Origin: Candidatus Jordarchaeales archaeon
Lineage (GTDB): Archaea; Asgardarchaeota; Jordiarchaeia; Jordiarchaeales; Freyrarchaeaceae
Assembly (NCBI GenBank): GCA_038858525.1
Contig: JAWCFL010000012.1
Coordinates: 29,492 to 61,491, forward strand
Direction: 5' to 3'
Length of the DNA stretch: 32,000 bases
This document shows positions 4,418-9,345 of this stretch, piece by piece; within the stretch, counting starts at the first letter, position 1, and every line of letters begins with the position of its first letter. The position numbers and the translations under genes were made by a program. Below the pieces are notes generated by a model. That model ran no database searches and was not told the origin of the DNA. It was given only the letters and a program-made list of their open reading frames with translations.

Positions 4418-5296
4418 TTGCTTCCGCTTTTTGTTAACTTAGAGCAAGTTACGCAGGGTCTCTTTATGACTGTCGTCATATGGATACTCCAGTATGGGTT
4501 TCTCGGTTTCTATGCAGCGATGGTCATACAAGCAATAATAGCAATCATCCCGAGTGAACTCATACTCATGTTCGGGGGAATCGCATACTCGCTTATCTAT
4601 TGGCCTGTGAATATTGTTAAGGGGTTCGACTACGCTTTGCTCGTGACTGCTCTGGTTGGAGGGGTTGGTGAACTGACGGGGGCGGTCGCAGGCTTCTACA
4701 TAGCAAGGATCGTAGGTAGGCCGATCGTATCCAAGTGGGAGGAGAAGGCGATGCAGGCTCGTGATGGAAATCCGAACGCGAAGAAGCTTGGAAGAATTGA
4801 GAAGGCGATCTTTTTGAGTCTGGGTGACGCCATTTTGATCGCGGATAACTGGCTTGAAAAATGGGGGGCTATTGCCGTCCTGTTAGCTCGACTAGCTCCG
4901 CCAATACCTTTCGACGCCGTGTCTTACGGGTCAGGGCTCACTAAGATAAAGTTTAAGCCATTTATCGCCGCCACAACAGTTGGGGCGTTTCCAAGGGCTC
5001 TCATGTACGCTTACATAGGAAAAAGGACTTACGAAAGCTTTGTGTTAATCCCTCAAGCACTCAGAACACTGTTCTTCCTCACCGACAATCCTGTAGCCCA
5101 AATGCTCATATACAACTACTTGGCGGGCAACCCGATCATGAGCAACCCCTACACAATATTCTTCGCTGTGGCAGCAGCGATACTCGCCTCGCTCTACATA
5201 TCTTACGAGGTCATAAAGAGAACCCAACTTAGGGGGCACCGGGCAAGAGGGCTAGACGAGCCTTGCTCAAAAACTGGAGAGGAAAGCGTAAAGTGA
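4418..5296 (+). CDS. VTT/DedA-superfamily membrane protein (TVP38/TMEM64/TMEM41-like)
   Basis: Hydrophobic helices with IPSE and ARLAPPIPFDAVSYGSGL motifs. Confidence 0.8.
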   Translation: MLPLFVNLEQVTQGLFMTVVIWILQYGFLGFYAAMVIQAIIAIIPSELILMFGGIAYSLIYWPVNIVKGFDYALLVTALVGGVGELTGAVAGFYIARIVGRPIVSKWEEKAMQARDGNPNAKKLGRIEKAIFLSLGDAILIADNWLEKWGAIAVLLARLAPPIPFDAVSYGSGLTKIKFKPFIAATTVGAFPRALMYAYIGKRTYESFVLIPQALRTLFFLTDNPVAQMLIYNYLAGNPIMSNPYTIFFAVAAAILASLYISYEVIKRTQLRGHRARGLDEPCSKTGEESVK

Positions 5297-5374: not shown

Positions 5375-6856
5375 GTGGCGAAGTGGCCTTACTTTGCAGG
5401 GGACTACGTGGTTGGAAGGGAGGAAGCTGCCTTCGCCGTGGTAACATGTGGCTCACATGACCTTCCTGAAAAGGTGGTTGCGCTGGCGGCTGACCTTGTA
5501 GCCATAGCGGGATCATGTGAGACCGAGAACGACGGCGTCGCCAGAGTGATCCAAAACATAGTTTCCAACAGCAACATACGATTTCTCGTCGTCTGCGGGG
5601 AGGAGGTTGTAGGGCACGCTCCGGGACAAACCATAGTGTCCCTCCACGAGAACGGCATAGGGCCAGACTACAAGGTTATTGGAAGCGAGGGCACAATACC
5701 CGTCCTGCACCCGAAGTACTTCAAGGTAGGGGACCCTTACACGGTCGTCGAGCGTTTCAGGAAGCAAGTTGAGTTAGTTGATCTCCGCGGAGAAAAAAAC
5801 CCGGACAGCATTGCGGCAAAGATACGCTCACTCGCAACCAAACGGGTCGAGAAATATTCTGAGCCGCCACTTCTCCCGCTTCCGGAAGAGGAAAAATATG
5901 ACTGGGCTACGGCACTTAGGCGCATCGAAGAGAAAGGCTGGCTGAGGGAGAGAGAAGTTGAGCCTGTGAGCTCTCTGTTCTACAGGAGGGAGTTGATGGT
6001 TTATGACGTCGCAGGAGTTAAGCTTGGGGGGCAGCGGGGAGAGTACTCCACTGTTCTGGCCGGGACGATCTTCTACAGGAAGGAGCCCATAGTCAGGGAC
6101 CCTATTAAGGGGATTTTCGATGAGAAGGCCGCTGAAGAGCTAATAGTGAGGCAGACGGAGCTTTCGGACGAGTACTGTGTGCCCTCGATGGTGCATGTGG
6201 TGGGCGAGACTGGGGAGGCTCTCTCAAACTATATGCTTTTCGTGGCGGACGTGACGGACGCACCAATAATAATAGATTCAACTAGTCTTGAAGCCCGCGT
6301 CGAAGCTATGATGATCGCGAAGGAGGTCGGACTGGAGCACAAAACAATATACAACTCGGTGTTAAGTGCTGAAGAGAGGGAGCTTGAAGCTTTGCGTGAC
6401 GTAGCGCCGATAGAGCACGCCATAATACTGTCTTATGGTTTCACGCTGGATGAGAGACTAAAAAAGGCGGATCTCATACTGTCCAGCGTTCGGGGGGTCG
6501 TAGAGAAGGCGATCCTGGACCCGGGGGTCCCCATACTCGGCGAGGGCGGATTGGAGGCGCTTCACTCCGCCTGGACTATGAAGAAGCTTTACGGCTACCC
6601 CACTGCTATAGGAATACACAACATGCTCGCAGGCGTTCACCACGAGTTGAGACGAAAAATGGACTTCTCCTTCATATACGCTCTTCCCTCACTGTATGGC
6701 GTCGACCTCAACCTCTATGGTCCGATGAAGAACGCGCCCAGAATTTTCCCCCTGGTTGCCGCCGCTGAAGCTGCAGTGGCGGATGAGTTACACAGCGTTC
6801 TCGGAGTCCATCCTAGGCCAACCCACCCATACTATAAAGTGAGGGAGACGAAATGA
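5375..6856 (+). CDS. mtrAH: MtrA-MtrH fusion: corrinoid-binding MtrA domain plus methyl-pterin methyltransferase MtrH domain
   Basis: N-terminal WPYFAGDY..CGSH..TENDG..SNIRFLVVCGEEVVGHAPGQ (MtrA, His at 5615-5617); C-terminal GGQRGEYSTVLAGTIFY..IIDST (MtrH). The track starts at 5327; GTG 5375 is preferred by homology. Confidence 0.85.
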   Translation: MAKWPYFAGDYVVGREEAAFAVVTCGSHDLPEKVVALAADLVAIAGSCETENDGVARVIQNIVSNSNIRFLVVCGEEVVGHAPGQTIVSLHENGIGPDYKVIGSEGTIPVLHPKYFKVGDPYTVVERFRKQVELVDLRGEKNPDSIAAKIRSLATKRVEKYSEPPLLPLPEEEKYDWATALRRIEEKGWLREREVEPVSSLFYRRELMVYDVAGVKLGGQRGEYSTVLAGTIFYRKEPIVRDPIKGIFDEKAAEELIVRQTELSDEYCVPSMVHVVGETGEALSNYMLFVADVTDAPIIIDSTSLEARVEAMMIAKEVGLEHKTIYNSVLSAEERELEALRDVAPIEHAIILSYGFTLDERLKKADLILSSVRGVVEKAILDPGVPILGEGGLEALHSAWTMKKLYGYPTAIGIHNMLAGVHHELRRKMDFSFIYALPSLYGVDLNLYGPMKNAPRIFPLVAAAEAAVADELHSVLGVHPRPTHPYYKVRETK

Positions 6857-8037
6857 AGCCATACGGCCCATACCTTATAAGGGCGTGTCACGTTGACGCA
6901 GCCTGGAGGCAGGCTAACAGGCTTATCCTCGAGAAAGGCATACCAGTAACCACAGAGGACAGGAACCAGGAAACCCTTGAAACAATAGGATGCATAATAC
7001 ACCTGACAGACTGGAGGAGCGGACCCATACTCCCCCGCGGATACATAGGAATGGATGAAGCAACCCTCAAGGGGAGTTACATACCCCAGTACTTAGCTTC
7101 GGATAAGGGTACACACACGTACACCTACGGGTGGTGCGCTAGGAAAAGGTTTGGTGTCAACCAGGTTGAAGAGGCAGGGAAAGCCCTAAGAAAAAGCAAT
7201 ACTGCTATAATACAGTTCTGGAACCCGGCATCAGATACGTTAAACCAGAACCCGCCATGCATAAGCATGATAGTTCTCCACAGAACAGGAGACCACGTCA
7301 ACGCCGTAGTATACCTCAGAAGCAACGACATGGCTAGGGCATGGCCCGAGGACGTGGCTGGAATAAACATCGTGTTCCTCACCGAGGCTGCTTCATACCT
7401 CAAGGGCGTAGAATCCATAGGGACGACGACAACGATATCCGCGTCAGCCCACATATACCGAACTTCCGAGGAGGAGCTGAGGGAGACGCTAAGCCAAACA
7501 ATGACCCCGACGGTGAGAAGGCGGAGAGAACCGGAGCGCAGGGCGACCGGAGGACCAATAATGATTGAAGCTACAACAATAAGGGAAGCGGTGGAGAAAA
7601 CAAGGAAGGTGGCTGAAAGGCACGCTGAGCCATTATACCCCATCCTGAAAATCCGCAGGCCCGAAGTGTTCGAGCCAGACCACGAACTAATAGACAAGCT
7701 GGAGGGCTACAATGGAGAGACGGACCAGGGGGAGAAGAAAACGGTAAATCAGCTCAACTACGCTGCTGAAAAGGTAGCTAAAACCCCCCAAAGCAGAAGA
7801 ATAGTAGTAACACCGTGTAACCCGAAAAGGGGGCACCAGAACCCACTACTTATACAGTTCCTCCCAAGGCAGGAAAACCACACAATAGCATTCTACGCAA
7901 ACATCAACATAAACGAGATAATCCAGGAAGCAGCAAAAACAGCGGAAATACAAAGAATAGTCTCAGAAAAAGCTAAAATTAAACCAGGACAACTAATAGT
8001 CATCATAACTCCGCTAAACACTGAAAGCTGTAGCTAA
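6853..8037 (+). CDS. Thymidylate synthase-superfamily protein with a duplicated TS domain
   Basis: Domain 1 has YTYG, PPC, RSND and SAHIY; domain 2 has NQL..SRRIVV. Overlaps the upstream stop (ATGA). Confidence 0.82.
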   Translation: MKPYGPYLIRACHVDAAWRQANRLILEKGIPVTTEDRNQETLETIGCIIHLTDWRSGPILPRGYIGMDEATLKGSYIPQYLASDKGTHTYTYGWCARKRFGVNQVEEAGKALRKSNTAIIQFWNPASDTLNQNPPCISMIVLHRTGDHVNAVVYLRSNDMARAWPEDVAGINIVFLTEAASYLKGVESIGTTTTISASAHIYRTSEEELRETLSQTMTPTVRRRREPERRATGGPIMIEATTIREAVEKTRKVAERHAEPLYPILKIRRPEVFEPDHELIDKLEGYNGETDQGEKKTVNQLNYAAEKVAKTPQSRRIVVTPCNPKRGHQNPLLIQFLPRQENHTIAFYANININEIIQEAAKTAEIQRIVSEKAKIKPGQLIVIITPLNTESCS

Positions 8038-8335
8038 AACCAAAAGCAACAAATCACCCGCACGCAAATTCTCCATAATCAATCTCTCCAGAAGCAGGCA
8101 TCTTACTCCCTTGAAAAAGCCGCTTGAAACATGAAAACTGAAAACTGGTTACCTTTCTTCCAGCATACAATGGAGAACGAAATCGACATTGGAACTCTGC
8201 TCCCTACTGAATTTAGCTAAACTATTTTAACTTCTTCGAGAAGACATTTAACGAAAACTGGGGTGAAAGAAAAATAAGTTTAAATATGAAGTGAAAGAAA
8301 GAAGAAGGAGAAGGACTAATGGGGAGGATGTGATT

Positions 8336-8494
8336 ATGAGTGAAGTAACGCCTTCACGTGTAAAATGCCCCAAGTGCGGTAGTATTGATGTAAAACAGAC
8401 TGAAGATAAAAGCAAAGTGCTCAGCTATGCTGGAGGGCAACCGATCTACAAGAAAATCTGGAAATGCAAGAAGTGCGGAGAGACGTGGGGATAA
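8336..8494 (+). CDS. Small zinc-ribbon protein (52 aa)
   Basis: CPKCG...CKKCG; ATG 8336 follows GGAGGATGTGA. Confidence 0.7.
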   Translation: MSEVTPSRVKCPKCGSIDVKQTEDKSKVLSYAGGQPIYKKIWKCKKCGETWG

Positions 8495-8628
8495 AACCAA
8501 CCACTAAGTGATTCAGGCTGATGAGCGTGCCTAGCGAATATCTGTTTTTTCTCTACTTATCTTTATCAAACAATAACAGTTTCTTCGTATGGTATATTTA
8601 CTCATTTGTTAATCCATATCTCTCATAT

Positions 8629-9345
8629 ATGTTTGACCCAGCCTACCTGTTTTGGGACATGTTAATGTTATGGATGAATCCTCTTGCTTGGGGTATGTTT
8701 TGTTTTTCAAATTTTTTTCCAGGCGGGGATCTAGGTGTTTACTTCGCGGTGTTTCTCGTTAGCATTTTCGGCAACTTATCCGTAATTTTCCCGGTACCAT
8801 ACGTAATTTTTCTTTGGTTTCTGGTTATTTTTAGAGTTTGGATTAATCCTCTGCTTTTAGGAATTGCAGCCGGCAGTGGAGCAGCTATAGGTGAGACCTC
8901 TGCCTGGCTTCTCGGGAGAGGGGCGGCTGAAGCGCTGGAGGACACGCAGTATGGTCAGCGGCTTAAGCGCTACGGGAGTCTCATAGAGCGGGGGTGGGGG
9001 ATCCCGCTAATCATTATATTTGCGGCATTGCCTTTGCCCGACGACGTCCTTCTTTTAGCTCTAGGGGCGCTTAAGTATTCCTATAAGAAAACAATTATAG
9101 CTTGCTTTACAGGAAAAATCATAATGTGTGTCGCAATATCTTTTGCTGCACGAGCATTTTCAACAACAAGAATATTCGGGAAAACTATCCTTGAGTGGTA
9201 CTCCGGGGAAGCGGGATTAACCACGATGCTTACCAGCATCGCCTTAATGATCCTAGTTTTCATAGCTCTGTTGTTCATTGATTGGGGTAAACTCTACCGA
9301 AAACTAAAAGAACTCATAAATAGCATTTCAAAGGTGTTCCCCTAA
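8629..9345 (+). CDS. VTT/DedA-superfamily membrane protein (YqaA/VMP1-like)
   Basis: FPVPY, GAAIGETSAWLLGR, PLPDD. The track starts at 8521, but that segment looks like AT-rich promoter DNA. Confidence 0.7.
   Translation: MFDPAYLFWDMLMLWMNPLAWGMFCFSNFFPGGDLGVYFAVFLVSIFGNLSVIFPVPYVIFLWFLVIFRVWINPLLLGIAAGSGAAIGETSAWLLGRGAAEALEDTQYGQRLKRYGSLIERGWGIPLIIIFAALPLPDDVLLLALGALKYSYKKTIIACFTGKIIMCVAISFAARAFSTTRIFGKTILEWYSGEAGLTTMLTSIALMILVFIALLFIDWGKLYRKLKELINSISKVFP

Follow-up and report, generated by a model that had tools for sequence, protein, structure and literature searches.

Domain architecture of the gene

The stretch of DNA analysed here (the window) comprises 32,000 nucleotides of contig JAWCFL010000012.1 from a Candidatus Jordarchaeales archaeon (assembly GCA_038858525.1). 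The gene in question is an open reading frame (ORF) at 6853..8037 on the forward strand, directly downstream of an MtrA-MtrH fusion gene (MtrAH), and it encodes a protein of 394 amino acids (aa), P0001, with two domains of the thymidylate synthase (TS, ThyA) fold, which are called D1 and D2 below. ThyA is a textbook obligate homodimer, in which the arginines of the Ser-Arg-Arg motif (R126'/R127') are supplied in trans by the partner subunit. The first-pass annotation had described the gene as a single-chain TS pseudo-dimer with its active site split between the two domains. The motifs that it gave for D1 (PPC, RSND and HIY, with SNT in place of SRR) and their coordinates were exact on re-reading, and its description of D2 (SRR kept at 7792-7800; Cys, RSxD and HxY lost) was borne out by the alignment with E. 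coli ThyA. Residues were mapped by aligning E. coli ThyA (K-12 record), short archaeal TSs, and both halves of four pseudo-dimers. The features of the gene are as follows.

6853..8037, forward strand: TS pseudo-dimer gene (P0001), with its ATG and the upstream stop codon overlapping in ATGA
6853..7518, forward strand: D1, catalytic ThyA-fold domain, approximately residues 1-222 (Pfam match at residues 90-219, structural match to TS-family chains with Z 19-22 at model residues 4-222)
7195..7203, forward strand: S115-N116-T117 of D1, at the site of E. coli S-R126-R127 (alignment; the Arg pair stands here in no family member)
7258..7260, forward strand: codon TGC of Cys136 in P134-P135-C136 of D1, corresponding to the nucleophile C146 of E. 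coli ThyA (alignment; invariant)
7318..7329, forward strand: R156-S157-N158-D159 of D1, corresponding to E. coli R166-S167-x-D169 (alignment; R, S and D invariant)
7351..7353, forward strand: Asp167 (GAC) of D1, at the pyrimidine-specificity position of E. coli Asn177 (alignments)
7450..7458, forward strand: H200-I-Y202 of D1, corresponding to E. coli H207/Y209 (alignment)
7495..7545, forward strand: Arg-rich interdomain linker (predicted local distance difference test score, pLDDT, below 50 at residues 225-229)
7546..8034, forward strand: D2, degenerate ThyA-fold domain, residues 232-394 (profile search, D2-only model and alignment)
7792..7800, forward strand: S314-R315-R316 of D2, corresponding to E. 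coli S-R126-R127 (alignment; invariant)

The alignment placed E. coli R126/R127 on N116/T117 in D1 and on R315/R316 in D2. C146, R166-S167-x-D169 and H207/Y209 have their counterparts in D1 (C136, RSND and H200/Y202), and in D2 no Cys stands at the corresponding position and the other two motifs are gone. N177 falls on D167 in D1, and its equivalent in D2 is not conserved. Y92 and E43 of D1 are likely the equivalents of E. coli Y94 and E58. D2 has no segment matching approximately E. coli residues 60-95, and it retains the DQ helix, the SRR loop, the beta-strands after that loop and the central beta-sheet. By sequence, the second site is without both the Cys and the Arg pair. An ORF on the reverse strand at 7125-7697 (190 aa) was taken as a shadow ORF of the TS gene; nothing supports its reality.

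Profile and structure comparisons showed that P0001 belongs to the ThyA/thymidylate synthase superfamily, as it has the TS fold and the catalytic motifs and scored 48.6 bits against PF00303 (cut-off 24.3), with a strong stretch at residues 90-219 and a weak stretch at approximately residues 285-326. D1 matched TS-family chains with Z 18-22 and a root-mean-square deviation of 1.8-2.7 over about 200 residues. For D2, a profile built from 34 sequences and searched against all Protein Data Bank (PDB) sequences matched thymidylate synthases only (E = 2e-4, over DQI..SRRIVV..NP..QF). The D2-only AlphaFold2 model had a pLDDT of 90.9, and its exhaustive comparison with 48,161 PDB representatives gave seven chains at or above Z 8, every one of them from the TS superfamily (Z 11.3-14.8 over 141-153 residues); the next chain, an unrelated one, had Z 5.0. 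The full-length model reached a pLDDT of 91.5 and a predicted template modelling score (pTM) of 0.92, with a mean pLDDT of about 91 in four of the five models, and its sole low-confidence stretch was the Arg-rich linker at residues 225-229.

Reciprocal motif loss in the family

A search of 5.8 billion proteins returned 34 full-length homologues with 36-73% identity, and those carrying a source name were all from Asgard archaea (Jord-, Frey-, Njord- and Lokiarchaeia). The columns invariant in these 34 homologues were P134, P135, C136, R156, S157, D159, D167, S198, A199, H200 and Y202 in D1, and Q300, S314, R315, R316, P324, Q335, L337 and R339 in D2. An exhaustive HMMER search of 1.84 billion representatives added two remoter pseudo-dimers, P0054 and P0048 (25-28% identity), with the same reciprocal pattern and with the equivalents of S314/R315/R316 kept. 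The first-pass annotation had proposed to look for the same reciprocal loss in homologues, and it was seen in 34 of 34 and in P0054 and P0048 as well. The annotation had also staked its reading on the fold of D2 and on the conservation of its Arg pair; D2 does take the TS fold, and the pair is invariant in the homologues.

In the tree of D1 sequences, P0054 was sister to the Asgard clade with a support of 0.91, in line with the pseudo-dimer architecture having arisen once. P0054 (416 aa) represents a second, distant pseudo-dimer lineage, and its gene lies beside ribosomal protein genes with no adjoining MtrAH. At the specificity position the residues read E-D in P0054 and G-N in its relative P0048. 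A search for shorter, split forms of D1 gave two fragments only, probably cut at contig ends, and no split two-gene form was found.

That the protein is under selection, and not a decaying duplicate, holds on these sequence comparisons, because the frame stays open and exactly these residues were kept. An opposite account would make D2 a decaying remnant of the duplication, or a passive folding scaffold, with an SRR that has no catalytic role. D2 is the less conserved half (mean column identity 45%, against 61% for D1) and all catalytic motifs are gone from it, as such an account would have it. However, none of the 36 or more lineages has a broken reading frame, S314, R315 and R316 do not vary even at 25% identity, D2 confidently folds as a TS domain in the model, and the Arg pair of D1 is missing in every member; if D2 did not provide its pair, the protein would have only two of its four phosphate-binding arginines. 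We therefore consider a role-less D2 highly improbable. The annotation's central proposal, a protein under selection whose halves each retain what one composite site requires, was supported by the invariance in 34 homologues, the TS fold of D2 and the position of the protein as sole TS candidate, which is described in the next section.

The proposed arrangement has a close parallel in engineered enzymes. R126/R127 of E. coli TS act on the site of the opposite protomer, so a heterodimer in which one protomer carries R126E/R127E is left with exactly one functional site; half-the-sites reactivity has also been reported for TS (PMC5981203). In the engineered ThyA heterodimers (wild type plus R126E/R127E; complementation of inactive mutants, Maley 1995) the Arg pair comes in trans and the Cys site lies on the other protomer, giving one working site, as is proposed here. 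The Asgard form differs from them in being natural, in a single chain and evolutionarily fixed, and its donor half has shed about 60 lid residues.

Two known groups stand near D1. Its best family match is the short methanogen-type TS (TIGR03283, single-domain, approximately 200-230 aa), which shares with D1 the motifs RSNDM..AWP and SAHxY, the compact size and the absence of a long C-terminus. Unlike the Asgard form, it has one domain, usually its own S/T-R-R, Asn177 and no MtrAH partner. The nearest relatives of D1 outside the family are the TS domains of MtrA-like/TS/PterinBD-DUF4346 three-domain fusions (approximately 450-510 aa) from bacteria of the candidate phyla radiation, Nanoarchaeia and other archaea, which also join TS to an MtrA-fold domain. 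An MtrA-like domain stood beside a TS domain in at least 65 retrieved proteins (P0037-P0041, P0046 and others), and the four examples that were Pfam-scanned were three-domain proteins of approximately 470-625 aa. In contrast to the Asgard form, these fusions have one TS domain, mostly their own Arg pair, and Asn177. The corrinoid His and Glu are missing from their MtrA-like domain, which may serve the linked TS as a pterin-handling or reductase module.

The composite-site model and the pyrimidine substrate

The genome from which the window comes is 92.7% complete, and its single PF00303 locus is the pseudo-dimer gene. ThyX, thymidine kinase, FolA and the cytidine/dCMP (deoxycytidine monophosphate) deaminase family (PF00383) were not found in this genome. 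It does carry a dCTP deaminase and an archaeal dUTPase, both over curated cut-offs, so deoxyuridine monophosphate (dUMP) is made, and no route for thymidine salvage was found. The analysis also covered 151 evenly sampled genomes of the phylum. D2 was present in 18 of them, from five families, and the pseudo-dimer was the only PF00303 match in 16 of the 18. No ThyX was found in the 19 genomes of the five D2-bearing families, and the other families of the phylum mostly had ThyX or single-domain ThyA. Three of the 18 carriers are single-contig genomes, and in these closed relatives the pseudo-dimer was the sole TS candidate. The distribution is complementary to that of ThyX and single-domain ThyA, and this speaks for the pseudo-dimer as the thymidylate synthase that these lineages use; in the organism studied here it is most likely the only one, judging from gene content.

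In two pseudo-dimer genomes there was a second, weak PF00303 match (G038:C121:10322-10828 and G082:C536:2249-2659). The match in G038 has two in-frame TAG codons, and both weak copies could be pseudogene, contamination or viral.

In the explanation that we favour, a short archaeal (methanogen-type) TS would have been duplicated in tandem. D1 would have retained the full catalytic set (Cys136 as nucleophile, R156/S157 for phosphate binding, D159, Y92, E43, H200 and Y202) and lost the Arg-Arg loop, and D2 would have shed all catalytic elements, among them about 60 residues of the substrate/cofactor lid, and kept the S-R-R loop plus the central beta-sheet, which is the dimer interface in ThyA. 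From the pTM of 0.92, the retained fold and the analogy to ThyA, we infer that D2 packs on D1 like the second subunit of a ThyA dimer, and that R315/R316 enter the D1 site and clamp the 5'-phosphate of the nucleotide. The outcome would be one complete active site and one dead site. The enzyme would turn dUMP, delivered by dCTP deaminase and dUTPase, into thymidine monophosphate (dTMP), and it would work with the corrinoid protein MtrA-MtrH encoded directly upstream, which may supply or transfer a one-carbon unit from a derivative of tetrahydromethanopterin (H4MPT). Taken jointly, as one figure, we give a probability of about 0.62 to the reading that P0001 is a natural single-chain asymmetric member of the ThyA family with one composite site, and most likely the thymidylate synthase of its lineage that converts dUMP to dTMP.

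Several observations weigh against this reading. The direct comparison of the D1 and D2 profiles was weak (E = 0.059 over 55 columns); weak similarity is expected after reciprocal motif loss, and because of it the internal duplication is better shown by the TS match of each domain on its own. The best NCBIfam model for P0001, TIGR03283 (methanogen-type TS), gave 100 bits, which is under its equivalog cut-off of 174.55. The absence of other TS genes in metagenome-assembled genomes is limited by their completeness, from which only the three single-contig genomes escape. The remaining points concern the residue at the specificity position. D167 was placed at the Asn177 position by both the alignment with the TS of Kaposi's sarcoma-associated herpesvirus and the alignment with E. 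coli ThyA. The equivalent of Asn177 is Asp in 36 of 36 family members and in P0054, and Asn in approximately 145 relatives, single-domain and fused. In the TS homologue of phage Xp12, the DNA of which carries 5-methylcytosine, PYDV aligned with PEDV of D1, with its Asp opposite D167. The change from Asn to Asp at position 177 switches the preference of ThyA from dUMP to dCMP, as stated in a passage of PMC8670742 that cites Hardy & Nalivaika 1992 and Liu & Santi 1992. In metagenomes, Asp at this position marks TS homologues on cytosine-modified DNA (PMC8670742).

These facts could mean that the same architecture serves a cytosine nucleotide, with the protein acting as a C5-methylase or hydroxymethylase of dCMP (or of cytidine monophosphate, CMP). 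In that case the 5-methylcytosine nucleotide would be deaminated afterwards to give dTMP, or the product would be used as a modified base. The invariance of Asp167 where about 145 relatives have Asn speaks for this, and so does its alignment with the Asp of the Xp12 homologue. The names of PDB entries include T4 dCMP hydroxymethylase D179N and L. casei N229D with dCMP. The closest structures to D1 were a phage dCMP hydroxylase (Z 22) and MilA (Z 20.5), with ThyA at about Z 19, an order that compact size may explain. The TS homologue of Xp12, T4 dCMP hydroxymethylase and MilA, among which are the closest structural matches, likewise have Asp at the equivalent of position 177.

However, the cytosine-specific enzymes of the TS family are homodimers from phage or antibiotic-pathway contexts, whereas the Asgard gene is a chromosomal gene among housekeeping genes and the sole TS candidate. 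The standard supply of dUMP is present, no PF00383 deaminase was found in the organism's own genome, and neither an alternative TS nor a thymidine kinase was found there, so a TS that consumes dUMP is needed. In addition, a protonated Asp is isosteric with Asn, and residue 166, just before Asp167 and always acidic (E or D), could raise the pKa of the Asp. On balance we regard a cytosine substrate as a serious but less likely alternative. The specific route from dCMP over 5-methyl-dCMP to dTMP by a dCMP deaminase was set aside as unsupported, given the lack of a PF00383 match in the 92.7% complete genome.

P0001 is accordingly not classed as an equivalog of the dUMP-specific ThyA (EC 2.1.1.45), because Asn177, the symmetric homodimer and the equivalog score are all lacking; instead of a homodimer with two equivalent sites, the sequence has a single chain with two unequal domains. 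Because of Asp167 and the MtrA-MtrH partner, neither the substrate, dUMP or dCMP, nor the source of the one-carbon unit is certain. The first-pass annotation, whose central inference stood, treated the protein as an ordinary TS and mentioned neither the change from Asn177 to Asp nor the partner gene.

The MtrA-MtrH partner gene

The gene directly upstream has the following features.

5375..6856, forward strand: MtrA-MtrH fusion gene, the upstream partner (longest ORF from 5327; homologues align from approximately the GTG at 5375)
5375..5902, forward strand: MtrA corrinoid-binding domain (PF04208, E = 2.3e-43; equivalents of His84, Glu54 and GxIP kept)
5987..6787, forward strand: MtrH domain, of the methyl-H4MPT-binding methyltransferase family (PF02007, E = 1.1e-61, residues 221-487)

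The stop codon of MtrAH and the start codon of the TS gene share a 4-nt overlap (ATGA) in the window, and because of this overlap the two are probably co-translated. The MtrA domain shares about 50% identity with the crystallised MtrA, and its GH(A/E)PGQ and CETEN align with the corrinoid His (His84) and Glu54 of that protein. The equivalents of His84, Glu54 and GxIP (GTIP) were invariant in 29 MtrA-MtrH fusion homologues, all of them Asgard. MtrAH lay immediately upstream of TS in all seven loci compared, which had otherwise differing neighbours. All 18 genomes with D2 in the phylum sample had an MtrA domain (E <=1e-82) approximately 2.2 kb upstream, in the same orientation on the same contig, and no other genome of the 151 had such a high-scoring MtrA match. 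No MtrB-G genes adjoin MtrAH in the window, and these lineages are described as being without the full membrane MtrA-H complex (PMC11291895). The Asgard MtrA-MtrH fusion has itself been described before, and the upstream gene belongs to the same protein family; the fusion was not tied to a TS gene there, and the fate of its methyl group, that is, the methyl acceptor, was left open (Valentin-Alvarado et al. 2024, PMC11291895). The conserved gene pairing points to MtrAH as the protein that provides or passes on the one-carbon unit. A complex prediction for the TS pseudo-dimer with the MtrA domain scored 0.00, which is no answer and weighs neither way.

If this partner had a stronger role, the two proteins together would methylate pyrimidines at C5 in a corrinoid-dependent manner. 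Methyl-H4MPT would give up its methyl group, by way of the MtrH domain, to Co(I) of the MtrA domain, and D1, activating C5 via Cys136, would take that group straight from CH3-Co(III), so that dTMP would be formed without oxidation of the pterin. The strict co-occurrence and adjacency (18/18 genomes and 7/7 loci, with the 4-nt overlap in the window), the invariant corrinoid ligands of the 29 fusions, the failure to find a FolA-type dihydrofolate reductase (DHFR) in the organism's own genome and the published statement that the fate of the methyl group is unknown (PMC11291895) would all fit such a scheme. On the other side, D159 and the RSNDMxxAWP pocket of D1 recur in relatives without MtrAH, a sign that the pterin-type cofactor is probably the same, and the distant pseudo-dimer P0054 has no adjoining MtrAH. 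The MtrA-TS-DUF4346 fusions had been considered as support for corrinoid use and were dismissed, as neither the His nor the Glu ligand remains in their MtrA-like domain. To our knowledge no enzyme of the TS family uses a corrinoid, and the literature search also found none. We judge this scheme unlikely.

The same doubtful standing applies to its consequence, a new thymidylate route by a three-module corrinoid enzyme, in which MtrH would handle the pterin, MtrA the cobamide, and the one-site TS pseudo-dimer would activate the pyrimidine. If it were true, the methyl group would pass from methyl-H4MPT to CH3-Co(III) and on to C5 of dUMP (or dCMP), the reaction would yield no dihydropterin and need no DHFR-type recycling, and the invariant Asp167 would be an adaptation to the changed chemistry.

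Other observations concern the surroundings of these genes. In more than 12 genomes of family f7 in the phylum sample, about 20 kb of the same contig separate a single-domain ThyA gene from a stand-alone MtrA-like gene, in frames of approximately 232 aa (for example G075:C1:487926 and 506548; G127:C1:255093 and 275166), which may be family synteny and not a functional link. In the window, a 67-aa ORF with two CxxC pairs (a zinc ribbon with a weak PaaD-type match) lies directly downstream of the TS gene at 8291-8494, and membrane proteins with a VTT/DedA domain (PF09335) are encoded on both sides of the MtrAH-TS cassette, at 4418-5296 and 8521-9345.

A literature search found no paper describing a natural tandem TS or TS pseudo-dimer, and searches on TS with MtrA/MtrH and on DUF4346 found nothing relevant. 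A survey of Asgard TS mentions no tandem form and treats the genes as ordinary thyA (PMC9931769). Half-the-sites behaviour has so far been studied with engineered one-site heterodimers. If the composite-site model is true, a natural and fixed single-chain TS with one site would show that one composite site suffices in vivo, and it would offer a clean system for studying the communication between the two halves. The invariant Asp challenges the rule that Asp177 means a cytosine substrate, or else it points to an unrecognised pyrimidine pathway. The strict pairing gives the orphan MtrA-MtrH corrinoid methyltransferase of Asgard archaea a concrete and testable partner, and the protein itself appears to be the sole route to dTMP in several lineages of the Asgard archaea, the closest archaeal relatives of eukaryotes.

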